A stretch of 64,000 nucleotides of DNA. Source: a virus. Of the stretch, positions 27,560-45,651 are shown piece after piece (positions within the stretch are counted from its first letter, which is position 1; the number at the start of each line of letters is the position of its first letter). A program made the translations under genes and the position numbers. The stretch spans positions 1 through 64,000 of IMG/VR virus record IMGVR_UViG_3300030110_004304. The stretch is one strand, 5' to 3'. The notes beneath the pieces are model-generated. The model did not search any database and had not been told where the DNA came from. It worked only from the letters and a program-made list of their open reading frames with translations.

Positions 27560-30500
27560 ATGGCAATGAAAAAACATAATAACACTTATGGTAAAGGCCT
27601 AAATGTTGATACCGCTTTTGATAGCATGCCTGCCAATATGTATATCGATGCTATGGATGTTAGAATAACAACTGCAGACGGAGAAAGCACAGGGGCTATA
27701 ACTAATCTTCAAGGTAACGAAGAAGCTTTTAAAATAAACCAAGCCGGTGCAACAGGATTAAAAGAAATAATAGGAGTAGGATTTATTAGAAATATTATAA
27801 TTCTTTTCTGTGCAGATGATACTGGGACTAATGGTTGGATGTATTATGTAACTTATGACGAACAAACTAGAAAAATAACTAGTGGAGCTCAGGCTCCTCT
27901 TTTGTATGATGGTGATGGAAACCCTAACTTATTAGGTTTCAGCAAAGACTGGCCAATAGAAGCCCAAGGAAGATATGAATCTGATTGCGTACAAAGAATA
28001 TATTGGACAGATTATAACAACTCACTAAGAAGTTTATTAATTGAAGATTTTACAAGTATTCCAGCTGGAGGATTATCATTAGACATTAGTGTAATTGATA
28101 TATTTCCTGAAGTAACATACACACAGCCAATATTAACTAATGTTGCTTTTGGGGGAACACTTCTTGCAGGAGAGTACCAATTTGCATATAGACTAATTAC
28201 AGAAGACGGTAAACAAACTTTAATATCTCCTCCTGGAAACCTAATACATCTAACAAGCGACTCAGAAGCTACTAGTACTAGTAGACGATATATGGGAGAT
28301 CCCAAAGGTACTAATACTAATAAAAGTTTAGAAATTACAATAGACACAAGTGATTATGTAAATAAATTTGAAAGAATAGAATTAATATCAGTATTCTTTG
28401 AAGAATATGGGGGCACTCCTTTAGTACAATCTGTCGAAACTCAAGGAATAGGAGTATTAACTGAAATAAATTTTATTTATACAGGCCAAGAAAACACAAT
28501 AGTAGATTTACCTTTAGCAGAGTTTGCTATTAAAGTATATCCTTTTAGCACCTGCAAAACAATGGTCCCTAAAGATAACTCTTTAGTTGTTGCTAATATA
28601 AAACAAACTAAGTTTGATATAAACGAATTATTAGAACCAGGAGAGACTTTAGATTTAATGACAAAAAGATATAATAGTAGTAGTGAGTTACCTTTTACAG
28701 ACGGACTAGTTAATCCGCTGGCACTTGTGCCAGGTACTCTTTACGAAGAAAAAGATGAAGTATTTAATCTTCCTTATAATCTAGATCAACATTGGGAAGG
28801 ACCTTGGCACGAAGAACAACAATTTAAATATCAAGCTGATGGTTCTACTATGGGGGGACAATCTTTAGACGATGGTGTGAATCCTTCTAATCTATCCTAT
28901 AAGTTTGCCCTAAGTCTTGATATAATAGATGACAGTAGTCAACCAGGTTTAGCAGAATTAACCAATACCTTTCCAAATGAGATTATTAATCTAAATGATG
29001 GTTATACGTACACTAATAAAAGTTTTCGCTCTAAAGCATCTCCCTACAAAAGTGGATTAACCAGAGGCTATAAAAGAGGAGAAGTTTATCGTTTTGGTGT
29101 AGTATTTTATAATAAAAAAGGAGAGTCTTCTTATGTAGAATATATTGGTGATATTAAGATGCCTGATATTTCAGAAGAAGCAGGCTATACAACAGTGACC
29201 GTTCCTGGTCCTGGAGCTAAAGACTTTTTTCCTATATCTTCAGCTGCATCTAGTGGTGCTACAGTTCCAAACGATTATACTTATGGTCATGATTTAGGAT
29301 TAAAAATAGATTTAGATTTTACATCTTGTCCTAGTATATTAGACAAAATAACTTCTTTCCAAATAGTAAGATGTAAAAGAACAGATGTTGATAAAAGAAG
29401 ACCCGCTTCTGGTATAATTAAATCATATCATTTTCCAGATATAGGTTCAAACCCACATTACGATCCTGATCCAGAAGATAGAGAAGGTTATGAATGGGAC
29501 AGTCCCGATGGAAATATTTTACATTTATATTGGACAAAACCCACTGGCTTTATGCCATCTGAGAGTGGAAAACCTTTTGCTGGTAGTTGGTATTCTTTTA
29601 ATAATAATTGGAACACATATCGAAGATTTTCAGCTGATGAAAACTATAGTCCAATATATGGAGATTTCTTAGCTTTCTACAGTCCTGAAGTATCTTATAA
29701 TTTTAACAGACAAAATCTTGAAGGAGCTGGAAAAGCACTTTTAATTACAGGTTCATATGCTGACTACGGCCTTATTTGGCAAGGTGCATCATCTACTACT
29801 AGATATTATACTAGTACTCTACATGATGAAATTTATGGAACTAATCAAAATAATCAAGAATTAGGATGTGACATATGGGAACAATATTTTAAAGTACGAA
29901 CAACTAATAGAATAGATAGAGAAACCGTAGCTGAACAACCAGATGGTACTCTAGATACTGTATATGATGGAGGAGCAGGTTATCCAATATCATATAGAGG
30001 AATAGAATATGTAAGACAATTTAACAATGCTGGCGTATTCACAGATTTTGAAAAGGCTCAAGAAGATGTTGAACGAGGAGATAGAATGAGTAAAATTATA
30101 AAAACGTATGGTCCTCTAGTTTCGAGCCCTCCTACTCCTACTTCTTTTTATATAAGACCTGTTTATGTTTTTGTAGGAAATGAAGGAGCTGTTGGAACAG
30201 ATGATCCTGATGATTGTCCTTGTGCAGTATCTCAACCAGGTCGTAGTCTTGGTGGTAATAATTGTGGATATGGAGGAATAGGAAGAGGATCAGTCTGCTT
30301 AACAGTGAATACTACTAATATATTTACCAATCCTTATACAAGTAATCCCGTTGTTGTTGGATCAACTGGAGTTGCTTTTCCTACAACTCCTACTAATGCT
30401 GTTGCTGGATCAGTAACCGATCCATGTTTTGGAGGTCCTAGCACATGGACAGGTAGTTTTGGTTATGTTTGGCCAGAGTTTCCTGATCAAAATTTTATCC

Positions 30501-32428
30501 CCAGTCCTTCAGGCAATGATTTTTTAAACAACATTATGAATACTCCAGTAGTAGACGTTATGTTGTTTAAGCAAGAAATTTACGGAGGATATACTAACTC
30601 TGCTTTACAGAATAATATATTTGTTCCCTGTTCGCCTGTAGTTACAACAGCACCTGTAATATCTAATTTAGAAGTTTACGGAGGAGATACTTTTATAGGA
30701 ATGTATAGTATGCAAACAAGAAGTATGATTCTAGATGAGTATCCTTTTCCTAATGGATTTACAGCAGGTAATGATGAGTATAGATATGAAGCCAATGGAG
30801 GTTGCACGGAAGCTATTCCAGTAGAAACCCAAGTAAATTTAGACTTAGCTATGGGAGGTACTTATAAAACTAATTCACAAGCTTATTGGGTCTATTCTGG
30901 AGTTGCAGAAATAGAAGGATTCCTTAGACAAGAAGTAGGTAATTTATCTGATTCAGGGGGTAGTGGTACTTGGGCTAAAGTAAACGATGCGTATAACAAT
31001 GCTTATAATCAAGTATACTCAGTAGAGCCTGCAGATAATACTTTAGGATTTTTCATCAAGCCTGGAAGTGCAACTGGTTGTGGAATAAATGATATTAGAG
31101 CATTCTTATCGGATGTTAAGATAAACGAAGAAGAAGTAGATTCTTGGTCTATATTTAGAGCCAATAATTATTATGATATAGAAGCTCAGTTTGGGCCCAT
31201 AAATAAAATAGAAAATTGGAGAGACGAAGTATTCTTTTTCCAAGATACTGGCGTAGGAAAGTATAGTATAAACCCAAGAGCAGTAACAACAACAGAAGAT
31301 GGTATACCTACGCAATTAGGTTCTGGACAAGGATTCCAACATCACCAATATCTAAGTACTGAAAACGGATCTATACATCAGTGGGCAGTAAAAGCTACAG
31401 ATACTGGAATATACTACTTCGATGCTATGAATAAAAAGATATTCAGAATAGGTGGCCAAGGAAACGAGCCTCTTTCAACTATGAAAGGTATGCACGGTTT
31501 CTTAGCTAATTTTAATGGAACAGTATTAAGAAGAAAAGAAACTGATCAAGCTATAAGTTTAGGAGGAGATAATCCAATACAGAATAGAGGCGTTGTATTT
31601 TCTAGAGACCAACAAAACGATGAAGTACTAATGACTTTCTTAGGAATGTATAAAGTAGTAGGATTAACTAATAACATTAACTATGAAGCAGGTACTATTG
31701 TACAAATAACTCCTGGTGGCGGAGGAACAATACAATATTGGATAGTGTATGAAAGCTACACAAGTGATCCCGCTGCTTCCTCTCCAGCACTACAAGCAGA
31801 ACTATCCACTAAAGCTAGTTGGGTAGATACAGATACTAGAGAAGGTAGGTTATTATATAGTATCTTACAAAAAGGAGATGGAGGAAAAAGTACTTTAGTA
31901 TTTGATGAGGTTGCCCAAGCATTCTCTTCATTCTATTCTTCTACTCCAGGACTTTATATAGAAAATAGCAATATTTTAATGAGTGCGAAAAAATCTAAAG
32001 AAGGAGATGAGTTTATAGCCTACACTCATAATAAAGGAAAGTACGGAGAGTTCTATGGAAGTATTGAAGAAAGTAGTATAAGCTTAGTTATAAATCCAGA
32101 TGCTGATATAAACAAAATACTTAGATTTATAGAATTTGGTTCTCAGGTAAAAGAAATAGGAGGAGACATAGATAGGAGTACTACTATCACTGCTTTTAGA
32201 GTAGAAAACGAGTACCAGGACACTACTAAAACTGCTTACAGCCCAAGTAATATAAAAAGAAGATTTGATAAATGGAGAGTTAAATTGCCTAGAGATCAGA
32301 AAAGTTCTTCAAAAAGAGGACGTTTAAGAAGTACTCATTTTGTTTTAACTTTGTATTTTAATAACTTAGATAACAAGGAGTTAGTACTTAATAGGATAAC
32401 TTCTCACTATGATGTACAGGTATACTAA
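27560..32428 (+). CDS. Muzzle / tail stabilisation protein
   Basis: 1622 aa; KGLN.D, RIYWTD, YKRGEVYRFGVVF, GGDTFI, YYDIE..GPI, RRFDKWR..LPR...RLR motifs. Confidence 0.85.
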   Translation: MAMKKHNNTYGKGLNVDTAFDSMPANMYIDAMDVRITTADGESTGAITNLQGNEEAFKINQAGATGLKEIIGVGFIRNIIILFCADDTGTNGWMYYVTYDEQTRKITSGAQAPLLYDGDGNPNLLGFSKDWPIEAQGRYESDCVQRIYWTDYNNSLRSLLIEDFTSIPAGGLSLDISVIDIFPEVTYTQPILTNVAFGGTLLAGEYQFAYRLITEDGKQTLISPPGNLIHLTSDSEATSTSRRYMGDPKGTNTNKSLEITIDTSDYVNKFERIELISVFFEEYGGTPLVQSVETQGIGVLTEINFIYTGQENTIVDLPLAEFAIKVYPFSTCKTMVPKDNSLVVANIKQTKFDINELLEPGETLDLMTKRYNSSSELPFTDGLVNPLALVPGTLYEEKDEVFNLPYNLDQHWEGPWHEEQQFKYQADGSTMGGQSLDDGVNPSNLSYKFALSLDIIDDSSQPGLAELTNTFPNEIINLNDGYTYTNKSFRSKASPYKSGLTRGYKRGEVYRFGVVFYNKKGESSYVEYIGDIKMPDISEEAGYTTVTVPGPGAKDFFPISSAASSGATVPNDYTYGHDLGLKIDLDFTSCPSILDKITSFQIVRCKRTDVDKRRPASGIIKSYHFPDIGSNPHYDPDPEDREGYEWDSPDGNILHLYWTKPTGFMPSESGKPFAGSWYSFNNNWNTYRRFSADENYSPIYGDFLAFYSPEVSYNFNRQNLEGAGKALLITGSYADYGLIWQGASSTTRYYTSTLHDEIYGTNQNNQELGCDIWEQYFKVRTTNRIDRETVAEQPDGTLDTVYDGGAGYPISYRGIEYVRQFNNAGVFTDFEKAQEDVERGDRMSKIIKTYGPLVSSPPTPTSFYIRPVYVFVGNEGAVGTDDPDDCPCAVSQPGRSLGGNNCGYGGIGRGSVCLTVNTTNIFTNPYTSNPVVVGSTGVAFPTTPTNAVAGSVTDPCFGGPSTWTGSFGYVWPEFPDQNFIPSPSGNDFLNNIMNTPVVDVMLFKQEIYGGYTNSALQNNIFVPCSPVVTTAPVISNLEVYGGDTFIGMYSMQTRSMILDEYPFPNGFTAGNDEYRYEANGGCTEAIPVETQVNLDLAMGGTYKTNSQAYWVYSGVAEIEGFLRQEVGNLSDSGGSGTWAKVNDAYNNAYNQVYSVEPADNTLGFFIKPGSATGCGINDIRAFLSDVKINEEEVDSWSIFRANNYYDIEAQFGPINKIENWRDEVFFFQDTGVGKYSINPRAVTTTEDGIPTQLGSGQGFQHHQYLSTENGSIHQWAVKATDTGIYYFDAMNKKIFRIGGQGNEPLSTMKGMHGFLANFNGTVLRRKETDQAISLGGDNPIQNRGVVFSRDQQNDEVLMTFLGMYKVVGLTNNINYEAGTIVQITPGGGGTIQYWIVYESYTSDPAASSPALQAELSTKASWVDTDTREGRLLYSILQKGDGGKSTLVFDEVAQAFSSFYSSTPGLYIENSNILMSAKKSKEGDEFIAYTHNKGKYGEFYGSIEESSISLVINPDADINKILRFIEFGSQVKEIGGDIDRSTTITAFRVENEYQDTTKTAYSPSNIKRRFDKWRVKLPRDQKSSSKRGRLRSTHFVLTLYFNNLDNKELVLNRITSHYDVQVY

Positions 32429-32434
32429 TTAAAA

Positions 32435-35400
32435 ATGGATAAGATAAGAAAATATAAACACGGCGGAGAGCCTCTTTCAAATACAAGGAGGATAGAACCT
32501 ACTGTGTCTTATTTGCACTATTTAAACAACCAGAATGAATTTGCATACGGAGGAGAAGTAAACCCGCCAGAAGGAGAAGATTTAGGAATGTCTAAAGAAG
32601 ATTTTATTAGAAGGGTTAAAACTGGAAAAAGTAGTATACCTACTCAAGCACTTCAGAATCAAGTAGACTTTTTAAATCACCCTTTCTATCAACAAAATGC
32701 TAGAAATGTATGGGGAGAAGATGCTAATCAAAATATAGCAAACCAAATTGATAGGATGAAGAGTGCTAAAGTAACACTAGAATCCAATTTAGGAAATGCT
32801 GCCGGAATGTTTCATCCACCTGGTATCATGAAGGGTAATGAGAGGGGTCATATAAAACTTTTAGAAAGCACTGATCCGTCTGAAAAACTTCATACTATGG
32901 AGCACGAACTAGGACATGCGTCTGATACAGGCAAAGCTTCTCATTGGTGGGATTATAATGACCCTGCTCGTACATATATAACAGATGACTTTGATAATGT
33001 AGTACAAAGGGGTGATGAAGATCCTTTAGCTAAAATGGAACCAGAATTTGGAAGTTATTATGATTTAACGCTAACTAATCCATACTATGACTCCCAAGAT
33101 CCAGATTATTTAAAAGTACCAACAGAATTTAGAACAAGATTAAACCATGTTAAAAAATTAATGGCTAATGATAATTTTAACTGGAACGAAAAATCTGCTG
33201 AAGAAATTGCTAATTACATGCAAGAAAAAAAATTAGATAATAATATAAGCGACGCAGCAAGAAGCGAGTTACAACAGTTTTCACAATACAATCGAGAAGA
33301 TGTAGATCAGTATCTGGACTATGGCGATGTTTACAGAGATTTTTTAAGTGAGGAAAATAGAAAAGGTAAAGAAGGAAAAGACTTTAGAAAACTTTGGAGA
33401 CAAGGTGTTAGAACACCAGAAGAATTTATAAATGCTCACCCGTGGTATAAAAAAATGTTTCACAAAGAAGAAATAGAACAAATACTAGAAGATAAAGATG
33501 GAGATGGTAAAGCTGATTTCGAAATTTTAGATGATTATAAAGGTAGGCAACAAAACAGAGCGTTTTTAGACAAGGTATTTAAAGAACTTGCTCAAGAAAA
33601 GAATATACCAGATAATAGTTACAGAGTAGCTAGAAACGGAGGAAAGCCTTATCCAGGACCTCCTTATTATCCTTATCACAGTGCAAATCTTAAAGTAGAT
33701 AAAAGCTACGATAAGAATCATGTACAACCTAGTGTATTTCCTAATGGTGGAGAACTAGTTACAATAGGAGATAAGACATATAATACGTCTAGTAAAGAAT
33801 ATAGAAAGTTAGTAGAATCTGGTAAAGTTAAACCGTACACTACAGATACTAAATCAGGAATAGGGGCATTTGATTATGGAAACCTTCCAGATTTTGAAGT
33901 AACAGCACCTACGCAAGAAGCTGTAGATATGGCTAAAAGTGCTTTTAATAGAAGTAAACAAGGGCAAGCTAAACAGCAAAACACACAAAATTTTCTAAAT
34001 AATAACAGATATCGTTATCCTGAAAGTGGTGCTACAAAAGGGATAGTAGAATCAATGGTAGAAGGAGTTATAGATAATCCTAATAACTTAAGTTATTATC
34101 CAGGTGCAGGAGAACTTTATGATGCAGCACATTTAGGATATAGTTTAAGACAAGGAAATTATGGAGACGCTGCTTTTGATGCAGCTGCATTTACAATTCC
34201 TTTTGTAGGAGGAGCCGCAATTAAAAAGTTTGTAAAGCCTTATTTAAAAAATGCATATAAATACAATCCTTTTGCAACAAATTTAGAATCAAAAATTGCT
34301 AAAGAAAATTTATTAGCTCGTCAAATATATGGAGATGAAGCATACGAAAACTTTTTAAAACATGGACCAGCAACTGAGTACGGTAAAAATGTACCTAGAC
34401 ATAAACAAATACATGATTGGCTAAATGCTGATGTAGAAGATGTTTCGATTATAAGCAAGGGGGGAAAGAATGAAGGTAAACTTACAGTCGCTTCTACTAT
34501 GACAGAAGATAGAAATTTTAAATATCCTTATTTTCAAAAAGGTAACTTATTCTTTGGTCCCAATGAAAGAGCATTATATAATGCTGATATGGGTAAAGGT
34601 AGAGTAATAATTCCTAAAGATGTCAATGCTAAAAGTTTTTATCCAGCAGGTGAAACAAGTTTTATCAGAAATGTTGATACTGCTCCAGAATCTGCTGTTA
34701 AAAGGTATTCAGGAGAAAAACATATATTATCACCTTTTGACAAAAATGCTTTTAATCCTAAAGCTTTTGATGTTTACGAAGAAACTCCTCATTGGTTGAT
34801 GGGCAATAGAAAAATACAAAGACATGGTGGTCCTACAGATCCTGATAAAGAGTATTTAAAAAATTGGAATAAAGCCAGACTAAAAACAGGTAGATTTAAT
34901 GACCAACTAGGATCCGGAAGAATAGAAGGGCTTAATCAAAATATTGATGAGGTCGAAAGAGTTTCGAGAGCAGAGATGTCAAAATTAATAGGAGAAAATC
35001 CAAATAGTAGAGGAATGTATTATAGAGACCCTGAAAAAGGTATGCATACATACTTTTCGGAACCTACTTTTTTACAAGAACTTACTAATTATTTTGGAGG
35101 AATGCCCCAAACAAATCTTCACGAATTAACACATGCTATGACAAAAGCAAGTAGTCATATTCCTGGAGAAGAATCTACTGGCCAAATAAAAGCAATACAA
35201 AATATACCTTTAGGAACAGGAGAATACTATGGTTCAAAATATAGTAAGATGTCGCCGGAAGGTAAATATGACGTAGGGCCTTATGGATATGATGGAGATG
35301 CTGAAGAAATTTTAGCACAACTTATGGAATATCGTAAGAATTTTAATGTAGACCCTAATAGAATTTTTACTGAAGATGACATCGAAGAAGTGATGGAAAA

Positions 35401-36169
35401 TGTAAAAAAACAAGGAGCAAGAGGTTTATTCGGTTTAGAGGTATATAAGCCTAAAGAACTAATAAGATTAATGAATGAAGTTGCTATGGTAGACGATAAA
35501 AAATCAGATATCAATATGGCAAGAAACGGAGGTCCAACAGATCCTCCAAAAAAAGAATTAGAAATCCAACCAGCTGTTACTTCAACAACTTATGTAGATA
35601 AGCCAGTATTTGATAGAAATGCGTTTTCAGCAAAAATAGTTAAAGAGCTAGGAATAAAGCCGGACACTTCAAATGAAAAATACCACGAAACTGCAAAATC
35701 GTATGTAGAAAATGAAAAAGTAATAGATAGAGAACCAATAAGCGGCCTTAGAAGCTTGCTTCCTTATCCTTGTTATGACTATACATGTGTAGAGCTTCTT
35801 AAAGATGCAGATAAAGATATAGGAAGGAACTCTATACCGGGGAATATAAATAATAATAGGCAACTAAGAGAGTATTTATTAAACAACCCTAATTACACTA
35901 CAGTACATCGTGATAGTACAAAACCTGGTGATTTAATACAATATTATGATCCTGCTAGTAATAATTATCCTTATCATGCGGGTATAGTTGATACAGATTC
36001 TTCGTATATTAGCAGTGGTGGGGGCACGCCTTATTTTCCGATTGGTAATCCTGTAGAGGTTAAAGGGCTAAAAACTTATAATACTTTAGACGGAGATCAA
36101 CCAGGTACTGAGTGGTATGGTGAGTCAAAAGATCCTTATTATGCTTATAGATATATAGAACAAGATTAA
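32435..36169 (+). CDS. Multidomain cargo-type protein: two zincins, pre-toxin-like unit, NlpC/P60-like domain
   Basis: HELGH (32903), HELTH (35120), PGAGELYDAA...IPFVG, C...PGD...HAGI; six xxGG motifs separate the modules. Confidence 0.75.
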   Translation: MDKIRKYKHGGEPLSNTRRIEPTVSYLHYLNNQNEFAYGGEVNPPEGEDLGMSKEDFIRRVKTGKSSIPTQALQNQVDFLNHPFYQQNARNVWGEDANQNIANQIDRMKSAKVTLESNLGNAAGMFHPPGIMKGNERGHIKLLESTDPSEKLHTMEHELGHASDTGKASHWWDYNDPARTYITDDFDNVVQRGDEDPLAKMEPEFGSYYDLTLTNPYYDSQDPDYLKVPTEFRTRLNHVKKLMANDNFNWNEKSAEEIANYMQEKKLDNNISDAARSELQQFSQYNREDVDQYLDYGDVYRDFLSEENRKGKEGKDFRKLWRQGVRTPEEFINAHPWYKKMFHKEEIEQILEDKDGDGKADFEILDDYKGRQQNRAFLDKVFKELAQEKNIPDNSYRVARNGGKPYPGPPYYPYHSANLKVDKSYDKNHVQPSVFPNGGELVTIGDKTYNTSSKEYRKLVESGKVKPYTTDTKSGIGAFDYGNLPDFEVTAPTQEAVDMAKSAFNRSKQGQAKQQNTQNFLNNNRYRYPESGATKGIVESMVEGVIDNPNNLSYYPGAGELYDAAHLGYSLRQGNYGDAAFDAAAFTIPFVGGAAIKKFVKPYLKNAYKYNPFATNLESKIAKENLLARQIYGDEAYENFLKHGPATEYGKNVPRHKQIHDWLNADVEDVSIISKGGKNEGKLTVASTMTEDRNFKYPYFQKGNLFFGPNERALYNADMGKGRVIIPKDVNAKSFYPAGETSFIRNVDTAPESAVKRYSGEKHILSPFDKNAFNPKAFDVYEETPHWLMGNRKIQRHGGPTDPDKEYLKNWNKARLKTGRFNDQLGSGRIEGLNQNIDEVERVSRAEMSKLIGENPNSRGMYYRDPEKGMHTYFSEPTFLQELTNYFGGMPQTNLHELTHAMTKASSHIPGEESTGQIKAIQNIPLGTGEYYGSKYSKMSPEGKYDVGPYGYDGDAEEILAQLMEYRKNFNVDPNRIFTEDDIEEVMENVKKQGARGLFGLEVYKPKELIRLMNEVAMVDDKKSDINMARNGGPTDPPKKELEIQPAVTSTTYVDKPVFDRNAFSAKIVKELGIKPDTSNEKYHETAKSYVENEKVIDREPISGLRSLLPYPCYDYTCVELLKDADKDIGRNSIPGNINNNRQLREYLLNNPNYTTVHRDSTKPGDLIQYYDPASNNYPYHAGIVDTDSSYISSGGGTPYFPIGNPVEVKGLKTYNTLDGDQPGTEWYGESKDPYYAYRYIEQD

Positions 36170-36179
36170 AATTAATGTT

Positions 36180-39100
36180 ATGGCAAAAAGAAAGAAAATT
36201 ACTAAATATCCACACGGAGGACCACATAATCCACCAGCACTTTCTCAACAAGAGTTGGCTCAGGTAAACCAAGCATTAGCTGCAGGGAATACTGCGAATA
36301 TGAACCAATTAATGTCGCCAGGTTTTTTACAAGGAAGACATACTGATTTTAATAAAGACGAATTTAAAGGTAGCCCTTTCTATGGATTTCCAGAATTTTC
36401 AGGAAATGTTACAGCAACAGGAAATAAGACTGGATGGGGTTTTGATTCTACACCACATAATAATTTAACAACTGCTGATTTATATGACCAAAATTTTATA
36501 AGCAATATAAACAGTAGTCCTTTGTTTGGGGTAAAAAATTATAATGAATTAACAGATGAAAAGGGCCAAAAATTCTATGCACCTAACTGGCAATTTAAAG
36601 GAGCTCCTACTGCTCCCACATTATACGATTACCATACAGGAACAGGTAATCGAAACATGCCATACACAGGACCTCTAACAGCAAACCAATGGCAAAAAAA
36701 TCCAGGTAATCGAAACCCTAATAAAGCTCAAGCTTTAAAACCATTGAGTAATCGACAAAAAAATTTAGCGTACAAAAACCAATGGATGTATAATGATGCA
36801 GATGGTAATGTTGTAACTTATGGTGAACTTAAAGGAAAGGATAAAAGAAAGCCTCAAATTGCTCAAGAAGAGTATACTACTTATTTTAAAGGAGATAAAG
36901 AAATAAATGAAGGTCAGTATAATAGAGGACTAAGCTCTAATGAAAAAAAAACGAATCAATATAATACACAATTAACTGATTATAATGACGCACTGACACA
37001 ACTAAAAACAAGCATGTTTCCTACTACACCAGTTGATCCAATAAATACAAGTACTTTAGTACCAGTTACTAAAAGATACGGAGGGCGTAAAAAATATAAT
37101 AACGGAGGAGAACTTACAGAAGAAGAAAAGTGGAACGCTAAAAGAGAAGCTGAGTATAAAAAGAAGACTGCAGAGTTTGAAAAAAAGACTGCAGAGTTAG
37201 ATGCTAAATTTGAAGCTGATAAACTAGGAAATGCAGAATACAAAAAACAATTGGCTGCATTAGAAAAAGAAAAAACAAGAGTTCAGAAAGTAAGAGATAA
37301 TGTTCTAAAGACAGCAGAAGATTTGAATCAAAAGAAATTAAATTTATTTCCTAATACTGAAGATGTTTATAGTGATGAGCAGTACGCTTTAAATCCTAAT
37401 TTAGAAAACTACGAAGAACTGCAATGGTATCTTAATTCGTTGAATAGTGGTTATCCTATTGGAGACGACGGTGAGACAGACTTTGGTGCTCCCCTTAAAA
37501 CAAAACAAGAGCACCGAGAGGTAATGAAAAACATGCCTCAAGAGTTCAGAGATATTTTTCCAAGGCAAGGTAATTATGATTTATATATGGCTAATAAATT
37601 TAATCCAGACGGCACTTTAGATGAGGACAATTACACATACCACTCTGGCAGAGGCTTATATTGTACTCCAGGTTCTACAGATTGTTATAGAAGAGCCGGT
37701 GCTACAGACATGCCTATTGTGAGTGGAAATCAGGGTTTTGCTAAAAGATCTAAAGAAGGAAAAATTCCTTTTCAACTAATCTCTGATAGTGAAGCACAAC
37801 CAGGAGATATAGGATTAAAATATGGTTATGTTTCTAAAAATTATGCTAAACCAGAGCTAGGAAAAACTAATAGAGTCCATCATACTACAATTGCTAAAGA
37901 GCTTGGTGATGTTAATAGTAAAGGTGAGATTACTAATATGATAGCATACTCTCCTAATGATGGTGCCAGAGAGAGTTTTAGGCCAGTACCAGAATATGCT
38001 GATTCTCCGAAGAATGTGCCTGGAGAAGATAGTGATATTATGTTCTACAGATACGTAGGACAAACTCCCCAGATGCAAGCAAATATAGATAATCTTACAG
38101 CACAAGGTTATAATAAAGAAGCACAACAACAACTAGCTATGATGCCTACAATGGGACCAGCTTATGTAGGAGGAAATACTCCAGTACGTACTCCTCAAGC
38201 AATAAATCCTATTGAAGGAATGGATAAAAGACAAACAAGGCAGTATCTAAAAAATCCTATGGGACAATATAATTACGATCAGTACTTACAATTACAAAAC
38301 AACGATATGGTTACTAATAACAAATGGGGAGGAACAGTACCTCCTGCAGAATTTAAAAACGGTGGTAAAAAAGGCGGCGGAGATTGTGGATGTGGTAAAC
38401 CTAAACCAGGAACTAAACCTACAAAATCTTCTACTAGCTACCAAAGCTTTGCTAACGGGGGTCCTAAAGACCCTCCTACACAAGAGGAGTTTGATATGAT
38501 GGACCAAAAAAGTAAAGAAGCTCTTTCTAAGCAGTATCCAGGTATGTACAAAATAAATGCTGGCACACCTACACAAGAACAATTGAACCAATTTAGAGCT
38601 CAAAATATGATGCAAATGCAGCCTACAAATATGGAACTTCCTCTCCCTGCAGCAGAAAGCACTTATGTTAATACGCCTATGATAGGCAACTATGCTAAAG
38701 GAGGCTATATGGGAATAAACCCTGACCACAAAGGATATTGCACTCCTATGAGCAAGTCTACATGTACTCCACGTAGAAAAGCACTAGCTAGAAGATTAAA
38801 GCCAGGAGGAGATTTATACAGAGGAAAGAAAGAAAATGGTGGTTATAATTATGCTGACTCTGGTTTTAATAGTGGAATGCCTGCAGGAGTTACTCAAAGA
38901 AGTTATTTAGACTACATCAACGGAGGCCCTTTAATGGCTAATGGCACTGTGGTATATGATAACGGAGGAGGTATGGAACAGTATTCTAGCGTACCTGTAG
39001 ATAGTTTTGATACTGGCGGTAGTCACGAATCTAATCCTTTAGGAGGAATCCCACAAGGTCCTAATGCATTAGTAGAAGAAGGTGAGAAAAAAATAAAAAT

Positions 39101-42100
39101 CCCAGGAACTGAAGAGAGCTTTATAGTATCTCCTAAAATTATTTTAGATAAAGCCACAGCAGAAGAATTTGATTTACCTAAAAAATACATAGGTAAAGAT
39201 ATGGTTAAAATATTCGATAGTGTATTAAGAGTTAACTCTAGAAGAGAAGGTGATACTATAGAAGAGCATACTAAAGAATTAGAGATTATGCCATTTATAG
39301 AAGCCCATACATTATTAACTGAAAGAAAGAACGCTGAAGAAGAAGCGGCTAAACAAGCAGCATTTACTGAAGACATGGATAACATGATGACTGAGTATCC
39401 TGAGTACATGCAAGCTTTAATGAGTCAACAACAACCTCAACAACAAGGACCGTCTCCAGAAGAACAAGCTATGATGGAACAACAAATGATGGCTCAACAA
39501 CAAGGAATGCCTCAAGGTCCCCCTCAAGGTAGTATGCCTATGATGGCTAAAGGAGGAATGATTAGGCGTGCTGATGGTTCTTATAGTAGAAGAGGGCTGT
39601 GGGATAACATTAGAGCTAACAAAGGTTCTGGTAAAAAACCTACGAAAGAAATGCTTAAGCAAGAAAAAAAGATTAAAAGTATGCGTTCAGGAGGAAAGAT
39701 GTGTTATAATTATGGAGGAGTAGAAACCCCTGAAGCATACGGATACCATGACTTTGCTCAAGAAGGCTATTCATCTATGCCTGCAGGAGTCACAGATGCA
39801 AGCACTGCAACAAATACAAATAGTGGATCTGGGTGGGGAACTGCAGCAGCAAACGCAGCAGTGGCTATAGGACAAGGTGCGGCTACCAACGATGATTACC
39901 TTTCAAGCGAAGCGGCTATGAATCAAAGTGCTGATCAAATAATAAGTATGATTCCTGGATATGGAGCATTTCACGGATTAGCTTCGGGAGCTTCTGATAT
40001 GGCAAGAGAGCAATTAGGAGAAGAGCAGTATGATTCAGAAGGAAATCCAACTGGATATAAGAAATACGATAATCAAGCAGAAAAAGCAGGAGATGTTTGG
40101 CTAAAACCAGAACATGAATACCATACACAAAATATAGCTGCTATTAAAGAGGGTGAGTCTGGAGCATGGGGAAGATTAGCAATGGGATTAGTACCAGGAA
40201 TGAATCAAACATACACTATGTTAGCAGATGAAAATATAAAATCACAAGCAGCAACTAGAAATGGAGGTAACATACATGCTTATGGAGGCCAGGTAAAAGA
40301 TTATGACTTTGGTGCAGTAATGAGAGGCGTGGGCACAGGATTAGAAACTGCTGCTCCATTATTATCTAAAATACCAGTATATGGTACTCTAGTAGCTACT
40401 GCTGCAGGAGGACTTGGTGCAGGTCTAGGTAATGTAGGAACAGGAGCAGACTTTAAAGAAGTTGCTAGAGATGTTGCTTTCGGTGCCGGGAAAGGTGCTG
40501 CTTCAACTGTACCTGGTTTAGGTGCAGTAGTATCAGGAGCAGAATCAGTAGTAGATTCTAAGATAGAAGATGCTAGTGAGAAAAGAAGTAAGGAATTAAT
40601 TGAACAAGGTGGTGAAGCTGCTGAGAATGAATTAAAAAGACAAAAAACAGATGCCACAGTAAATAAAGTTATCGGACTAGCGGGAACAGCAACAAGCTTA
40701 GGAATGAATGCTGCAGACCAAGCTGCTGGTGAAGCTTCCGACGCATTTGGGGAAGCTGCTTTAGAAGGTACAGCAGACTTAGCAAGTTATGCTCCTGAAG
40801 GAACAACTACTGGAATGGTAGACGGAGCAATGGTATCTATGGCTCCCGGTACTATGGCTTATGGTGGATTTATGAATAGAAACTTCAGAAATGGAGGTAG
40901 ATACAGAACATTTGCTAATGGAGGTCCAGTAGATTCTTACGCAGATATTCCAGCAGAAGATTTAGAATACATCAAAAAAATCATAGCATATGAAAGAACT
41001 CATGGAGCAGAAGATGGTACTGGATTAACAGATGCTAAATGGAGTAAAAACAAAGTTGCTTCTATGGCAGGGGCTACTGATGATGAAAAAGCTGCTTTAT
41101 TTATTTATAATACATATGCTGCAGATAAATCAGGAATGCCTCTTGATTTAAGAATGAGAGCTGTAGATATGCATTTGAATAGTGAAGACCCTACAGGTTC
41201 TATGTTAGTTGCAGCAGGTCTTATTAGTCCTGCTGAAAAAGTAAAGTTACTTTATACAGCAGATAACAAGGGTAAGTTAAAGTACGATCCAGCTAAAGCA
41301 GAAGCTTTGTTAAAAGAATGGGAAAAAACAGATGAAGGTGTGAAAAAATTAGCTGCTCTTGACAAGGCTAAAAAAGATCCTAGATTTATAAAAGCTTTTG
41401 ATTCAGAAAGAATGAGGAGTTATAAAAATACAACTAATAAAGCTGGGGCATTTGATAACACTTGGCGTCCTAGAGTACACATTTTTGATGAAGGTTTTGA
41501 TTATGATGAGTATCAAAATATGCTAACGACTGTATCTGATTTTGATAAGAAAATTGCTGGTTTAGATAATACATCTGCTACTTATGAAGACGATTTAAAA
41601 ATTCTTCAAGAACAGAGAAACGATGCTGCGGAAGATATAAATCTTTTTGAGTATCAAGAAGATCCTAATGACCCAACAAAATTCACGTATACAGGTATTG
41701 GTCAAGAAGATGTGGATTACTTAGCAAGTGATGATGAAGGAGAAGAAGAAGATCCTCAAGATCCTTTTGAAAAAGCTGATCAAGATGATTATACAGCACC
41801 GGATGTTACAGATCTTAAGCCTAAGTTTAAGGACTTAGCAATTGGAGCTGCTCCTGCACTATTCGATATAGGAAGAGGTCTTCTTGAAAAAGATCAACCT
41901 TTAGAACTAAGTAGAATAAACGAAATTAGTAGTCCTCGTATTAATTTAGACGAAGCACAAAAAGCACAAGACAGAGCATTCGCTGCCCAACAAAGTGCTA
42001 TTAGAAACGCTGCTCCAGGAGGAGGAGCCTATCTAGCTAATCAACAAATGGCATATCAAAACTGGATGCAGAATGCTGCTCTACTAAGAGAAAGAGAAGA

Positions 42101-42380
42101 ACAGCTTAATGCACAGATTGCTGGCCAAGACTTAAGAACCAATGCAGGTATTCAAGCACAAAACATAAGATTAGATGCTAAAGAACAAGATTGGAGAGCT
42201 AAACAAAAAGCAGCTAAGATGGATCTAATAGGGTCAGGAATGGGATACTTAGGAGATATGGCTGCAGAAAATAGAAAGAATAAATTTATGGTTCAGCAAT
42301 ATTTCCCAGCAATAGCTCCAGTTATGTCCGACTATATGCAATGGCAAAAAGAAAAAGAAAAAAACGAAGAAACTGATTAA
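36180..42380 (+). CDS. Cargo/ejection protein 1-like polyprotein (2066 aa)
   Basis: GGSHESNPLGG...LVEEGE core, Gly/Ala hydrophobic helices, Q/A-rich C-terminal coil, about 19 xxGG motifs; lies after the muzzle. Confidence 0.75.
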   Translation: MAKRKKITKYPHGGPHNPPALSQQELAQVNQALAAGNTANMNQLMSPGFLQGRHTDFNKDEFKGSPFYGFPEFSGNVTATGNKTGWGFDSTPHNNLTTADLYDQNFISNINSSPLFGVKNYNELTDEKGQKFYAPNWQFKGAPTAPTLYDYHTGTGNRNMPYTGPLTANQWQKNPGNRNPNKAQALKPLSNRQKNLAYKNQWMYNDADGNVVTYGELKGKDKRKPQIAQEEYTTYFKGDKEINEGQYNRGLSSNEKKTNQYNTQLTDYNDALTQLKTSMFPTTPVDPINTSTLVPVTKRYGGRKKYNNGGELTEEEKWNAKREAEYKKKTAEFEKKTAELDAKFEADKLGNAEYKKQLAALEKEKTRVQKVRDNVLKTAEDLNQKKLNLFPNTEDVYSDEQYALNPNLENYEELQWYLNSLNSGYPIGDDGETDFGAPLKTKQEHREVMKNMPQEFRDIFPRQGNYDLYMANKFNPDGTLDEDNYTYHSGRGLYCTPGSTDCYRRAGATDMPIVSGNQGFAKRSKEGKIPFQLISDSEAQPGDIGLKYGYVSKNYAKPELGKTNRVHHTTIAKELGDVNSKGEITNMIAYSPNDGARESFRPVPEYADSPKNVPGEDSDIMFYRYVGQTPQMQANIDNLTAQGYNKEAQQQLAMMPTMGPAYVGGNTPVRTPQAINPIEGMDKRQTRQYLKNPMGQYNYDQYLQLQNNDMVTNNKWGGTVPPAEFKNGGKKGGGDCGCGKPKPGTKPTKSSTSYQSFANGGPKDPPTQEEFDMMDQKSKEALSKQYPGMYKINAGTPTQEQLNQFRAQNMMQMQPTNMELPLPAAESTYVNTPMIGNYAKGGYMGINPDHKGYCTPMSKSTCTPRRKALARRLKPGGDLYRGKKENGGYNYADSGFNSGMPAGVTQRSYLDYINGGPLMANGTVVYDNGGGMEQYSSVPVDSFDTGGSHESNPLGGIPQGPNALVEEGEKKIKIPGTEESFIVSPKIILDKATAEEFDLPKKYIGKDMVKIFDSVLRVNSRREGDTIEEHTKELEIMPFIEAHTLLTERKNAEEEAAKQAAFTEDMDNMMTEYPEYMQALMSQQQPQQQGPSPEEQAMMEQQMMAQQQGMPQGPPQGSMPMMAKGGMIRRADGSYSRRGLWDNIRANKGSGKKPTKEMLKQEKKIKSMRSGGKMCYNYGGVETPEAYGYHDFAQEGYSSMPAGVTDASTATNTNSGSGWGTAAANAAVAIGQGAATNDDYLSSEAAMNQSADQIISMIPGYGAFHGLASGASDMAREQLGEEQYDSEGNPTGYKKYDNQAEKAGDVWLKPEHEYHTQNIAAIKEGESGAWGRLAMGLVPGMNQTYTMLADENIKSQAATRNGGNIHAYGGQVKDYDFGAVMRGVGTGLETAAPLLSKIPVYGTLVATAAGGLGAGLGNVGTGADFKEVARDVAFGAGKGAASTVPGLGAVVSGAESVVDSKIEDASEKRSKELIEQGGEAAENELKRQKTDATVNKVIGLAGTATSLGMNAADQAAGEASDAFGEAALEGTADLASYAPEGTTTGMVDGAMVSMAPGTMAYGGFMNRNFRNGGRYRTFANGGPVDSYADIPAEDLEYIKKIIAYERTHGAEDGTGLTDAKWSKNKVASMAGATDDEKAALFIYNTYAADKSGMPLDLRMRAVDMHLNSEDPTGSMLVAAGLISPAEKVKLLYTADNKGKLKYDPAKAEALLKEWEKTDEGVKKLAALDKAKKDPRFIKAFDSERMRSYKNTTNKAGAFDNTWRPRVHIFDEGFDYDEYQNMLTTVSDFDKKIAGLDNTSATYEDDLKILQEQRNDAAEDINLFEYQEDPNDPTKFTYTGIGQEDVDYLASDDEGEEEDPQDPFEKADQDDYTAPDVTDLKPKFKDLAIGAAPALFDIGRGLLEKDQPLELSRINEISSPRINLDEAQKAQDRAFAAQQSAIRNAAPGGGAYLANQQMAYQNWMQNAALLREREEQLNAQIAGQDLRTNAGIQAQNIRLDAKEQDWRAKQKAAKMDLIGSGMGYLGDMAAENRKNKFMVQQYFPAIAPVMSDYMQWQKEKEKNEETD

Positions 42381-42390
42381 AAAATAAAAG

Positions 42391-45300
42391 ATGGCAAATC
42401 CATATTCAACTCCTTTAACAGCGAGATATAAGTATAAACCACTAGATGTCAGTGTGTTAGCACAACCACTTGCTCAACAACAGCAGCAATATGACTTAAC
42501 AGAACAAGCCGTAGATGCTGCTCAGTTTGAGTTAGCAGGCCTATCTCCAGATAGTGAAAGAGCTAAAGAAATAAAAGCAGTTTTAGGTGAGCAAGTAGGA
42601 GATATTTCTGAAGGACTGTTGTCCAAAAGAGATTATAGAACAGCTGCTAAAAATCTAAATAAACTAAATAAGTTTTATAATAGTAACGAAGAGATAAAAG
42701 CTATTAAAGGAAACTATAATGCTTGGCAAGACGCTATTAAAGAGCAGAAGAAAAGATTAGTTGGAAAAAATGCAGACTTAAGTCAAAAACAATATGAAGA
42801 GTGGTATCAAAAATCTATGATAGAGTTTCGTGACAAAGGAGGTACTGACTTCAGAGACGGAGATTATAACACCATAAATACAATGGGAAGAATGTCCGAC
42901 ATGGACAAAGAAATACAGGATTATGCATATAAATTAGCTAATGCTAGGCCGGATGAAAAGAGAACTATATTAGGAAAAATCCAAGATGTAGCAGGACATA
43001 GATTCAAAGATCAAGTAATAGATACAATAATTACTTATCAAAACAAGGATGACATTACTGCTGAGCTCTACAATCAATTATCTAGTTCAGATAGATTTAA
43101 AAGTTGGTTAGATGAGAAAGCAGAATATAACCATTTCTTCCAAAGTTATGGGAATCCAGAATATGCTGCTGACATGTATGGAAAATATCATGCACATTTA
43201 GATGAACAAGAAGAGAATATAATTAAATCGAAAGCAAAGAAAAAACAAAAAGAAGCAGCATTAGCAAATGTTGAAGAGCAAAGAAGAAGTTTAACAGAAG
43301 GTTATGCTAAAAGCAAAGGAGATTATATTAAAGGTTTGGTTAAAAAAGCCCACACACAAGATTACTTAATGGGAGTATCTTCTAGTATGGCTGATGTATT
43401 TAACTTTCAAGATATAGAATATGATCGTACTTTCGTAGATGATTTTGAAGCAAAAGAAAATTATAAAAGGGCAATGAAAGCTGCTGATGATGCTCAAAAT
43501 ATGTTTTTCTCAGTAAGTCCTGATACACACGTTGCTCCATTAGGACCAAATGGAGAAGTTTTAACAGGAAAAGAAGATCCTGGAGAGCTTATACAAAACT
43601 TAATTGGAACATCTTCTACTACAGGAATGAATTGGACTCCTGGTACTGGTACTGGTTTTAAAGGATTAGAAACTAATATATCAGGAACTCAAGTAGCTTT
43701 AAATAATTTACAATTAAAAATAAATCCTTTAAAGCGTCAAGCTAAAAGAGATCTTCAAGCTGCTAAAACAGAAGAAGAAAGACAAACTATAATTAATAAT
43801 TATAATAGAGATAATGCAGACTTATTCGATAAACAAAAAAGACTACAAAAAGCTTTATCAGAACAGAAAGCAGTATATACAAGAGAAACTGATAGAGTAA
43901 AAATTAATATAAAGAATAATTTAAATAGGTTAATAGCAGAAGGAAGAAAAAAAGGACAAGATGTTTCTTGGTATACTGAGCAATTAAATCTTATAGAAAA
44001 CAATATTTCAGATCCTTGGAATCTTTCTATTTCACAAAATAAAGGGAAAGTTAGTATATCTGGTTACTTAAAAGGGATGCAGGTAGATAGTAAATCTAAA
44101 TATGATAATAGTCCATTATTAGGTGATTTAAGTTTTGCACAGCCTGGTGTTCCCGGATATGATGTAATAAGATTAGATGGTATAACTAGTGCTTCTCAAG
44201 GTACTAATCTTTCAGGAGTTTTAAGCCCAGGAACTGTTGATGCAGGTGTTGCTGCGGGAGCCCTCTTATTAGATTATGCTACATCCGATTCAGGAGGAGA
44301 CATTATTCCTGTACAAAGGATGGCTGGAGAAGATGATAGAAAACAAATACAGAATATTAAAAATAATAACAAAGAAGCAATACTTGAATTTGATGTTTCC
44401 AGCTCTGACTTTGATCATGATTTTGCAGTACTTCCTTATAGCCAATCAGGTTTCGTACAACAAGCTCACGATAGAAAAAATTCTTGGATAAAAATGTTAG
44501 AAGAAGAAGGATATACAATTGTTCAAGGACCACGATCTAATAGTGATAAGCATGCTTATTTAGATGATATAGTAGTACACCATTTAAGAGCTGTTCCTAA
44601 TAGCCTAATAAAAAAGCAAAAAGAATATGTATCAAACCCAAATAAAAATCAAATGGCTATTCTACAAAAAGGGGTCAGTGAAGAATTATACAATCAACAA
44701 ATGAGTAGAAGTACTCAAGATCAAGGGATTATATTAAATGATGCATCTAATTCAGTATCAGGAGGAGTATTTAACCAATTAGTAGATTATCAACAACAAG
44801 ATACTAATAACGCTAATACTCATAGATTTTATATGAATGAAAATGGAAGTTATAGAATGGCTAGTGATGGAATGAATAATGAAGAACCTAATCTAAATTT
44901 ATACGAAGCTAGAGAAGTAGTAGGTACATCTACTGTAGACGGTAAACAAATCCCCCTAATTAGATATGCTTTAAAACAAGATTTAACAGAAGGCCAAATA
45001 ATAAATGAAATTTCTAGAAGTGGTAATGTAAAAGCACAGACAGGAGGAATGAGTGCTGATGAAAAAAGAGTGTGGAGTGCTACTAAAATGGGACTTTTAA
45101 CTGATGATTGGAGAAATGTGTTTAGTACTGATGTAGTAGTAGGAACTCTAGGAACTAGTTTCGCTCTAGGAGAAGCTGTTAAAAATACTAGAAAAACTTT
45201 TGAAAATATAGCAGAATATGGAGACGGAGCACAAACTGCTAACGCTTTAACACAATTAGCTCAAACAGAAATTTCTTTAGATGGTAAAATGCAAGATAGA

Positions 45301-45651
45301 CTTGCTTTAGACTATATAGATTTATTTCAAGGAACAACAAACGAAATAAGAAATCAAGGTACTCCTTTTGCATTCCCAGACGGTTCTTTAGGAAGATATG
45401 ATATTATTTATAGAAGCACAGGGGGAGGAGGAGTTACTCAAGAAATTACTTTAGTAGATGCTAAAAAATATCCTAATGAAACCGTAGGAAAAGAAATACT
45501 TACACAGAGTCTAAGTAACGTAATGAACTCTGATGTTCCTGCCTTTATGAGATCTTATGAATTACTGTATGGAATCAACACTAATCAAGCGTATATGAAT
45601 AATATACTAAATAGAGGACAGAATATTGATGTAGCTAGCGTAGGAAGATAG
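42391..45651 (+). CDS. Cargo/ejection protein 2-like
   Basis: MANPYS...YKPL N-terminus; helical; between cargo 1 and the RNAP. Confidence 0.65.
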   Translation: MANPYSTPLTARYKYKPLDVSVLAQPLAQQQQQYDLTEQAVDAAQFELAGLSPDSERAKEIKAVLGEQVGDISEGLLSKRDYRTAAKNLNKLNKFYNSNEEIKAIKGNYNAWQDAIKEQKKRLVGKNADLSQKQYEEWYQKSMIEFRDKGGTDFRDGDYNTINTMGRMSDMDKEIQDYAYKLANARPDEKRTILGKIQDVAGHRFKDQVIDTIITYQNKDDITAELYNQLSSSDRFKSWLDEKAEYNHFFQSYGNPEYAADMYGKYHAHLDEQEENIIKSKAKKKQKEAALANVEEQRRSLTEGYAKSKGDYIKGLVKKAHTQDYLMGVSSSMADVFNFQDIEYDRTFVDDFEAKENYKRAMKAADDAQNMFFSVSPDTHVAPLGPNGEVLTGKEDPGELIQNLIGTSSTTGMNWTPGTGTGFKGLETNISGTQVALNNLQLKINPLKRQAKRDLQAAKTEEERQTIINNYNRDNADLFDKQKRLQKALSEQKAVYTRETDRVKINIKNNLNRLIAEGRKKGQDVSWYTEQLNLIENNISDPWNLSISQNKGKVSISGYLKGMQVDSKSKYDNSPLLGDLSFAQPGVPGYDVIRLDGITSASQGTNLSGVLSPGTVDAGVAAGALLLDYATSDSGGDIIPVQRMAGEDDRKQIQNIKNNNKEAILEFDVSSSDFDHDFAVLPYSQSGFVQQAHDRKNSWIKMLEEEGYTIVQGPRSNSDKHAYLDDIVVHHLRAVPNSLIKKQKEYVSNPNKNQMAILQKGVSEELYNQQMSRSTQDQGIILNDASNSVSGGVFNQLVDYQQQDTNNANTHRFYMNENGSYRMASDGMNNEEPNLNLYEAREVVGTSTVDGKQIPLIRYALKQDLTEGQIINEISRSGNVKAQTGGMSADEKRVWSATKMGLLTDDWRNVFSTDVVVGTLGTSFALGEAVKNTRKTFENIAEYGDGAQTANALTQLAQTEISLDGKMQDRLALDYIDLFQGTTNEIRNQGTPFAFPDGSLGRYDIIYRSTGGGGVTQEITLVDAKKYPNETVGKEILTQSLSNVMNSDVPAFMRSYELLYGINTNQAYMNNILNRGQNIDVASVGR

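Follow-up and report, generated by a model that had tools for sequence, protein, structure and literature searches.

A recurrent Gly-Gly motif at the module borders of two giant cargo-type proteins in a crAss-like phage

The subject of this analysis is a short Gly-Gly motif that recurs along two adjacent giant open reading frames (ORFs) of a virus known from IMG/VR record IMGVR_UViG_3300030110_004304. The window, by which we mean the whole stretch analysed, is the first 64 kb of this complete 91,345-bp record with direct terminal repeats. The two ORFs, P0001 (32435-36169, 1244 aa) and P0002 (36180-42380, 2066 aa), both on the plus strand, directly follow the muzzle protein gene, exactly as a first-pass annotation of the sequence had described them. 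Searches of Pfam and PHROGs identify in this genome a terminase, a P22-like portal (5424-7886), a crassvirus major capsid protein (9215-10705), ring proteins (11725-12483 and 26414-27550, with Ring1 at 26414) and the muzzle protein (27560-32428, plus strand), and the window thus belongs to a crAss-like phage. It has no nucleotide match among GenBank phages, and protein matches among these phages are confined to the Bacteroides phages DAC15 and DAC17, in which 10% of P0002, in the CARG1 region, aligns at 28% identity. Downstream of P0002 lies a C2-like gene (42391-45651, plus strand, 1086 aa), with the conserved N-terminus that typifies the gene following C1 in related loci, followed by ORFs of 4210 and 1719 aa that make up the RNA polymerase (RNAP) region. 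The order of ring protein, muzzle, cargo protein 1 (C1), C2 and RNAP-associated giant genes is found both here and in 11 related IMG/VR loci (L002-L012), where a C1-type gene is likewise flanked by the muzzle gene and the C2-like gene, while in some related phages a single gene of 2117-3667 aa spans the entire interval from muzzle to C2-like gene.

P0002 is an expanded version of C1, the protein represented in phage crAss001 by gp45, because it possesses the CARG1 domain, aligns with gp45 and matches its fold, and it also occupies the corresponding gene position. The crAss_CARG1 family (PF25725) matches P0002 aa 940-1058 at 27.8 bits (cut-off 27; E 3e-6), BLASTP aligns a single domain with crAss001 gp45 aa 441-551 (E 6e-5; 26% identity), and the AlphaFold2 (AF2) model of P0002 aa 700-1190 has 7qog_M as its top Foldseek match (probability 1.00, target template modelling (TM) score 0.53), this chain of 7QOG being the gp45 fragment on the crAss001 portal, 126 residues from gp45 aa 425-552 (PMC10172136). 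A similarity between the C-terminal domains of P0002 and gp45 was also considered, and it was not significant by BLASTP. P0001 has no CARG1; judging by modules that in relatives occur inside the C1-type genes, it is best regarded as a portion of this modular cargo that has become detached, an accessory cargo ORF. Searches of PHROGs, of PDB sequences and of the ESM Atlas returned nothing useful for either protein, and IMG/VR holds no locus related to P0001. Both giant proteins are probably carried in the particle and injected; presence in the virion and binding to the portal and tail barrel are known for crAss001 only (PMC10172136), the phage of the window being uncultured.

All of the motif copies listed in the first-pass annotation, 6 of 6 in P0001 and 19 of 19 in P0002, are present at the positions given there. 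In P0001 these are YKHGG, following a basic leader (aa 7-11; 32453-32467), FAYGG (aa 36-40; 32540-32554), ARNGG (aa 399-403; 33629-33643), FPNGG (aa 435-439; 33737-33751), QRHGG (aa 795-799; 34817-34831) and a second ARNGG (aa 1029-1033; 35519-35533). P0002 begins with YPHGG (aa 10-14; 36207-36221), and in both ORFs, as had been noted, a basic stretch is followed by a copy lying among the first 14 residues. The remaining copies in P0002, all on the plus strand like those in P0001, are clustered. A tandem of KRYGG and YNNGG (aa 298-310; 37071-37109) is kept as a pair in orthologues; NKWGG, FKNGG and FANGG (aa 714-761; 38319-38462) share a segment with a predicted local distance difference test (pLDDT) score below 50; YAKGG, KENGG, YINGG, YDNGG and FDTGG (aa 838-947; 38691-39020) occupy a low-confidence segment before CARG1; MAKGG, MRSGG and YNYGG (aa 1122-1180; 39543-39719) flank a small basic module at aa 1126-1170; TRNGG and HAYGG form another tandem (aa 1359-1370; 40254-40289); and MAYGG, FRNGG and FANGG form a triple tandem (aa 1559-1582; 40854-40925), a cluster kept in all eight of the aligned C1 orthologues. 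The proline linkers that had been reported to follow the motif, GGPTDP (twice), GGPHNPP, GGPKDPP and GGEVNPP, are likewise all there.

The motif exceeds what amino acid composition predicts, and this holds also for shuffles confined to short blocks, which keep local composition and so cancel the effect of locally Gly-rich stretches. When whole proteins are shuffled, [NHYK]GG is found 7 times in P0001 versus 1.9 expected (reached in 2 of 500 shuffles) and 17 times in P0002 versus 3.9 expected (0 of 500); when shuffling is restricted to blocks of 20 or 40 residues, the expectations are 1.9 for P0001 (its 7 copies being reached in 4-5 of 2000 shuffles) and 4.3-4.7 for P0002 (0 of 2000). The stricter pattern [FYMW].[NHYKWST]GG occurs 14 times in P0002 versus 1.0 expected (0 of 2000). 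Three of the six copies in P0001 show alanine or glutamine at position -3 in place of an aromatic residue, which makes this ORF the weaker case; its enrichment, taken alone, is modest, and that of P0002 is beyond doubt. None of the other 25 ORFs of at least 150 aa in the window is enriched, including the portal, capsid, muzzle and C2-like proteins and the two giant ORFs of the RNAP region, and the proposed specificity of the motif for P0001 and P0002 therefore stands. One lone motif-like sequence is found far from the cargo genes, in a 74-aa ORF (1259-1483) whose C-terminus reads FIIDGGKP, and this is probably a chance occurrence.

The motif is also conserved in relatives. Within each of the 11 related loci, enrichment is confined to the gene that bears CARG1, which has 9-19 copies versus 1.4-3.9 expected (0 of 200 shuffles), and none is seen in their muzzle, C2-like or RNAP-region genes. 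A phmmer search with P0002 aa 651-1650 retrieved 2057 proteins, and in 142 retrieved homologues of at least 400 aa the pattern [FYMW]..GG occurs 1133 times versus 195 expected, a 5.8-fold excess, with 113 of the 142 enriched individually. The family consensus is [F/Y/M]-[A/K]-x-G-G-x-[M/L/I/H]: in a logo of 2526 GG sites, position -3 is tyrosine, phenylalanine or methionine (44%), -2 is alanine (22%) or lysine, -1 is tyrosine, asparagine or methionine, +1 has no preference and +2 is methionine, leucine, isoleucine or histidine. Glycine is further enriched 7-9 residues to either side of the motif GG, due to the tandem copies. Copies are found in crAss001 gp45 as well, for example at aa 16-21, 205-210, 423-428 and 558-563: the first follows the basic N-terminal leader, the GG at 209-210 of the second immediately precedes the tail-barrel helix (214-245), the third (NAFGG) marks the start of the portal-bound domain (425-552) and the fourth (FAYGG) lies just beyond that domain. 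Two simple accounts of the motif can be set aside with these data. A signal for recombination at the DNA level is rejected, as motif codons vary like the rest of the genome, and Asn-dependent self-cleavage is rejected, as the residue before GG is not conserved as asparagine in the family. All four glycine codons are used in the motif, in roughly genomic proportions; what is constrained is thus the peptide, not the DNA.

As to where the motif sits, structure prediction and homology point the same way. In the AF2 model of P0002 aa 700-1190, the confident regions are aa 763-812 and 959-1108, and every motif copy falls outside both; nearly all of the modelled copies have pLDDT below 50, and two, at aa 1171-1179, lie in blocks averaging 53-68. 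The seams, as we call the segments that carry the motif, thus appear in this modelled stretch as low-confidence segments between modules, and they are probably disordered. The model of P0001 aa 45-1244 has a mean pLDDT of 38.8, and the borders in P0001 are therefore taken from homology. One example is presented by its close relative P0019, which shares with it one block of 93% identity running from GG798 (QRHGG) to the C-terminus and a second 93% block that stops exactly at GG439 (FPNGG). Another is P0020, a relative with CARG1, whose aa 251-459 correspond to P0001 aa 402-610 at 83% identity, the block beginning exactly at GG402 (ARNGG). A third is a group of eight relatives in which the homology to an HExxH module stops at about P0001 aa 1030, just before GG1032. 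An all-versus-all BLASTP comparison of 174 proteins yields 5833 internal block ends, of which 24.2% fall within 5 aa of a motif, versus 8.6% for random positions, with block ends peaking on the second glycine and block starts on the aromatic residue or the first glycine. When eight C1 orthologues are aligned with MAFFT, the motifs stand out as conserved anchor columns at which indels of whole modules begin and end, and the order of modules also varies among proteins, the second of the two small basic modules of P0002, for example, being found before CARG1 or after it.

P0001 and P0002 are thus beads-on-a-string proteins, whose joints nearly all bear the motif. Alignments of relatives show that it is at the seams that complete modules enter or leave the chain, replace one another, change order or become separate genes, and the seams themselves are conserved anchor points across orthologues. 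The claim that the motifs delimit exchangeable cassettes has therefore held up, with relatives gaining, losing and swapping cassettes at motifs, and so has the claim that the motifs lie at borders, as long as these are understood as the borders of homology blocks. The "recognisable domains" of the earlier description (zincins, NlpC/P60, muramidase) did not fare as well: they rest on short signatures such as HExxH, because Pfam finds only crAss_CARG1 in P0002 and nothing at all in P0001.

One could argue that the motif has no function of its own, being a linker habit that has spread along with mobile modules, a footprint of cassette copying in a place where any flexible linker would do. Indeed, modules bear GG on both flanks wherever they are found, and the tandem copies at joints resemble scars left by the fusion of two flanked modules. 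However, the motif is kept at aligned positions in orthologues whose flanking sequences have diverged or have been replaced, and this conservation, along with the 5.8-fold enrichment over 142 proteins and the variation of codons under a peptide that is kept, is evidence for purifying selection on the peptide; we therefore consider a functionless footprint very unlikely.

As to the modules that the seams separate, Pfam recognizes no enzyme domain in either ORF, the only enzyme-like signatures being the HExxH sequences at P0001 aa 157 and 896, while homologues carry M15_3, DUF2272, lysozyme, GH19, SLT, MORN and Pkinase by Pfam. The labels proposed earlier for a PT-TG-like cassette, a GH108-like muramidase and an NlpC/P60 domain find no support in Pfam at E values up to 1. 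The first module of P0001 (32654-33595, plus strand, as are all the modules that follow) contains HELGH at aa 157-161, is zincin-like by this signature only and has homologues in P0006 and P0028, with P0001 aa 74-387 matching P0006 aa 805-1121. It is followed by a small module at aa 403-439 (33641-33751) that in relatives is the N-terminal module of the C1 gene itself, the stretch of aa 411-439 occurring at the N-terminus of several C1 proteins. Then comes a candidate gluzincin module (34832-35524) with HELTH at aa 896-900, whose H, E and H are nearly invariant (at least 90%) in an alignment of 10 homologues, a glutamate about 60 residues downstream being invariant, and finally a C-terminal module at aa 1035-1244 (35537-36166) that is 91% identical to the C-terminal module of P0019. 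The HELGH, HELTH and C-terminal modules are all without a Pfam match. In P0002, a Cys-containing basic mini-module at aa 843-886 (38706-38837) recurs in 20 other proteins of the set, in varied settings, and a second basic mini-module at aa 1126-1170 (39555-39689) is highly conserved across 84 other proteins. These mini-modules, each of about 45 aa, belong to no Pfam family and match no GenBank phage. A GG lies on either side of them in most of the listed occurrences, across dozens of architectures that are unrelated. Between them lies the CARG1 portal-binding domain with a long helix (aa 940-1108; 38997-39503), of which aa 959-1108 are confidently modelled. The C-terminus of P0002 is formed by the conserved C1 C-terminal domain (aa 1901-2066; 41880-42377), common to 32 other proteins of the set. 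Separately, a Gly/Ala-rich hydrophobic stretch is present at about aa 1385-1470 (about 40330-40590), similar to a stretch of gp45 (aa 136-158) that is Gly-rich and predicted to form a transmembrane helix, and it may be a membrane-inserting part.

A motif of this kind brings to mind a site of polyprotein processing, at which a protease, be it a phage zincin, another phage enzyme or an enzyme of the host, would cut the chain at Gly-Gly or beside it, either while the particle assembles or once the protein has been injected, freeing the modules as separate proteins, and this was one of the two functions originally proposed. The resemblance is to the GG/X sites of the adenovirus protease, of African swine fever virus (ASFV) pS273R, of enzymes of the Ulp1/deubiquitinase type and of the coronavirus papain-like protease. 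P0001 does possess two HExxH modules, one of them with conserved H, E and H. However, these modules are missing from the 11 related loci and from nucleotides 1-70000 of crAss001, all of which have the motif, and they are thus not the general processing enzyme. Profile searches of the complete genome for Peptidase_S78, S77, C48, C39 and C5 gave no match, although a divergent enzyme is possible, and no clan CE or comparable virus-encoded protease of the adenain, pS273R or Ulp1 type was found. Most endopeptidases do not cut before proline, whereas here proline at P1' is not depleted: it directly follows GG in 7 of the 25 copies in the window and in 7.5% of 1203 motif sites, which is 1.35 times the background. 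The motif also does not conform to a double-glycine leader, which is a single N-terminal leader with a C39 partner, as it is mostly internal and multi-copy and Peptidase_C39 is absent. Nor do natural gene ends fall at GG in the related cargo blocks.

The crAss001 particle can be cited on both sides. Its gp45 is seen on both sides of the portal, with 12 N-terminal segments in the tail and, in the capsid, 12 copies of a domain further along the chain (PMC10172136), and zincin-like modules, frequent in the polyvalent proteins of phages, have been proposed to process the proteins that carry them (PMC5512222). On the other hand, the gp45 domain of aa 425-552, which contains NAFGG, TQGG and INEGG, is built as one modelled chain in the cryo-electron microscopy structure, so that three GG sites are continuous in it, and the authors treat gp45 as a single chain, intact and stretched through the portal (PMC10172136). 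The FDTGG of P0002 aligns with INEGG, inside this solved domain. We also matched peptide masses to the public matrix-assisted laser desorption/ionisation (MALDI) peak lists for bands 1-10 of the crAss001 virion gel (Shkoporov 2018, PMC6235969, supplement file 14). The matching recovered the proteins expected in the bands, with bands 1-9 assigned to gp44, gp50/47, gp49 (with gp44), gp20, gp26/22, gp22/25, gp25 and gp23, while gp45 never rose above decoys in bands 1-10, gp46 being likewise undetectable. In particular, gp45 was not detected in the 85-100 kDa bands, where the portal, also present in 12 copies, was detected, a result compatible with processing, low abundance or poor ionisation. Semi-tryptic termini at GG were not found beyond chance, the GG-ended gp45 masses giving two isolated matches, which is about chance level. 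With no candidate protease, proline tolerated and FDTGG aligned inside a continuous domain, the proposal of a cleavage site has not been borne out, and we consider processing at the motif unlikely. If the seams were nevertheless cut, and C1-type cargo were a true polyprotein processed in the particle or after injection by a not-yet-recognised protease, with the release of shuffled enzymes and small basic peptides, this would explain the presence of gp45 in both tail and capsid at 12 copies each, and it would represent a new polyprotein strategy for tailed phages, parallel to the core maturation of adenovirus and ASFV; to us, this is an improbable scenario.

The second function originally proposed was that of a tag for loading proteins into the capsid. 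A general loading tag finds no support in the C2-like and RNAP-region proteins, expected to be packaged by analogy with crAss001: they are without the motif at either end and are not enriched in it, and the motif is thus not a general loading signal. Nor is the copy after the basic stretch of P0002 an N-terminal tag. The leader of P0002 with YPHGG, followed by PHNPP, is homologous to an internal seam of relatives, SVFNHGG followed by PHIDP, and the module that in relatives lies upstream of this seam now sits in P0001; what looked like a tag is therefore a truncated seam. A narrower version may also be considered, in which every copy would serve as a short linear motif for some defined pocket of a virion protein (the portal wing, ring proteins, the capsid interior, a scaffold or other cargo) and would thereby recruit or position the cargo. 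Hydrophobic residues on both sides of GG are conserved in a position-specific manner amid fast-evolving, low-confidence segments; tandem copies form an arm leading into the CARG1 core, an arm that constitutes nearly the whole N-terminus in the smallest C1 proteins and is ordered on the portal in crAss001 (PMC10172136); and motif copies adjoin every resolved segment of gp45. Yet the motif is missing from the presumed cargo proteins named above, the residues modelled in the map do not include the gp45 copy before the tail-bound helix (GG 209-210), and the N-terminal copy is what is left of an internal seam. Co-folding of the N-terminal 500 aa of the C2-like protein with P0002 aa 835-960 gave, without controls, a score of 0.01, which weighs on neither side. 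We regard a specific docking handle as doubtful.

We favor a different explanation, holding it about as likely to be right as wrong: the motif would be a conserved, probably uncut seam peptide of the crAss-like cargo protein 1 and of its detached modules, acting as a flexible joint. The seam would stay uncut, and the joints would allow each module to fold, unfold and refold independently, while the chain would be stored extended, threaded through portal and tail, as has been proposed for crAss001 gp45. Through the hydrophobic residues flanking the Gly-Gly turn, chains may touch one another, or the rings of portal and tail, weakly and repeatedly, and the copies in the arm before the portal-bound CARG1 may be an ordered example of such contact. 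With this arrangement any in-frame junction at a seam would yield a working protein, making the cargo repertoire easy to reshuffle, and the seams would serve as permissive points for the evolutionary exchange of payloads, which in relatives include peptidoglycan hydrolases. Several observations weigh against the uncut joint. A plain hinge needs neither a conserved aromatic residue at -3 nor a hydrophobic one at +2, and this pattern suggests recognition by some other factor. The 12 copies of gp45 in both tail and capsid are easier to picture if the chain is cut (PMC10172136), and in the peak lists of the 2018 gel gp45 is not seen where its size would place it, which is a weak observation. As to the supporting data, low AF2 confidence is no proof of disorder, P0001 is without a usable model, and BLAST block ends favor conserved residues, which inflates the exactness of the peaks but not the 2.8-fold enrichment.

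Of the known systems, crAss001 gp45 is the closest (Bayfield et al., 2023, PMC10172136; PF25725; 7QOG chain M). Like P0002, it is encoded after the muzzle gene and before C2, has CARG1 by Pfam, BLASTP and fold, and carries a basic N-terminal leader followed by a motif copy, with further copies elsewhere. Unlike gp45, P0002 is 2.5 times longer, with many inserted modules, and is accompanied by a second, upstream gene, P0001, with further modules. The crAss001 structure paper mentions neither the motif, nor cleavage, nor module exchange (PMC10172136). The polyvalent proteins of phages and conjugative elements (Iyer, Burroughs, Anand, de Souza and Aravind, 2017, PMC5512222) are similarly very large and multi-modular, are codelivered with DNA and have modules that are shuffled among relatives, which is what we find here. 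They differ in that Pfam finds no polyvalent-protein domain in the two ORFs and that zincin-like modules are not common to the motif-bearing relatives. No junction motif is described for them, and the words "linker," "glycine" and "crAss" have zero occurrences in that paper (PMC5512222).

Other likenesses are more distant. T7 gp16 has a transglycosylase domain, and the cassettes of relatives include peptidoglycan hydrolases (M15_3, lysozyme, GH19, SLT). Like P0001 and P0002 as we picture them, the ejection proteins of podoviruses (T7 gp14/15/16, P22 gp7/16/20, N4 gp51/gp52) are packaged, are ejected before DNA and are thought to unfold for passage through the tail (PMC10172136, PMC13434306). 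However, we found no sequence relationship to these proteins, and neither a repeated seam motif nor cassette shuffling has been described for them; the structures of crassvirus ejection proteins were still unresolved according to the 2026 paper on N4 (PMC13434306). With two groups of eukaryotic viruses the likeness is in the sites themselves. The adenovirus protease recognizes (M/I/L)XGG/X, and ASFV pp220 and pp62 are cut by pS273R. As in those sites, a hydrophobic residue precedes Gly-Gly by a few positions, in many copies in a virion protein and between functional units, but here the genome has no clan CE protease, proline is tolerated after GG and, in a solved structure, the chain is unbroken at one homologous site or more. 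The capsid targeting sequence of T4 and the cargo-loading peptides of encapsulins are short, single, terminal tags, those of encapsulins being Gly-rich with alternating hydrophobic residues. The seam motif resembles them as a short peptide that could load unrelated proteins into an HK97-fold shell, and it differs in being internal, in reaching up to about 20 copies per chain and in being absent from other presumed cargo.

Full-text searches on crAss phages, their cargo and proteases turned up no published description of the motif, which is real and conserved and apparently undescribed. No phages are more abundant in the human gut than the Crassvirales, whose relatives are common in the environment, and these viruses store and inject megadaltons of protein. 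The seam peptide offers a rule for parsing giant proteins that resist annotation into modules, a rule for predicting the points of payload exchange in relatives, and, for cultured phages such as crAss001 and DAC15, a guide to where mutations or reporters could be introduced. If it is indeed uncut, it would clearly illustrate how a short linear motif can organise a beads-on-a-string protein that is ejected.

A few additional features of this genome deserve mention. Two Gly-rich ORFs in the window probably encode fibre proteins, one collagen-like (15460-16431; 14.6% glycine, with a weak match to Pfam Collagen) and one of 738 aa (16713-18929; 16% glycine), and the seam motif is not enriched in either. 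In the remainder of the genome (64000-91345), nearly all ORFs of at least 100 aa are on the minus strand, two of them with a single motif match and the rest with none. The N-terminal peptide of the C2-like gene is invariant in eight divergent phages at P4, P8, Y15-K16-P17-L18, A24 and P26-L27, while the overall identity of the C2-like proteins across these phages is just 19-35%, and this peptide itself resembles a binding peptide. The 4210-aa ORF of the RNAP region (45688-58320) contains, near its C-terminal end (aa 3993-4132), a circularly permuted YpsA SLOG domain (PF12694, E 5e-21).

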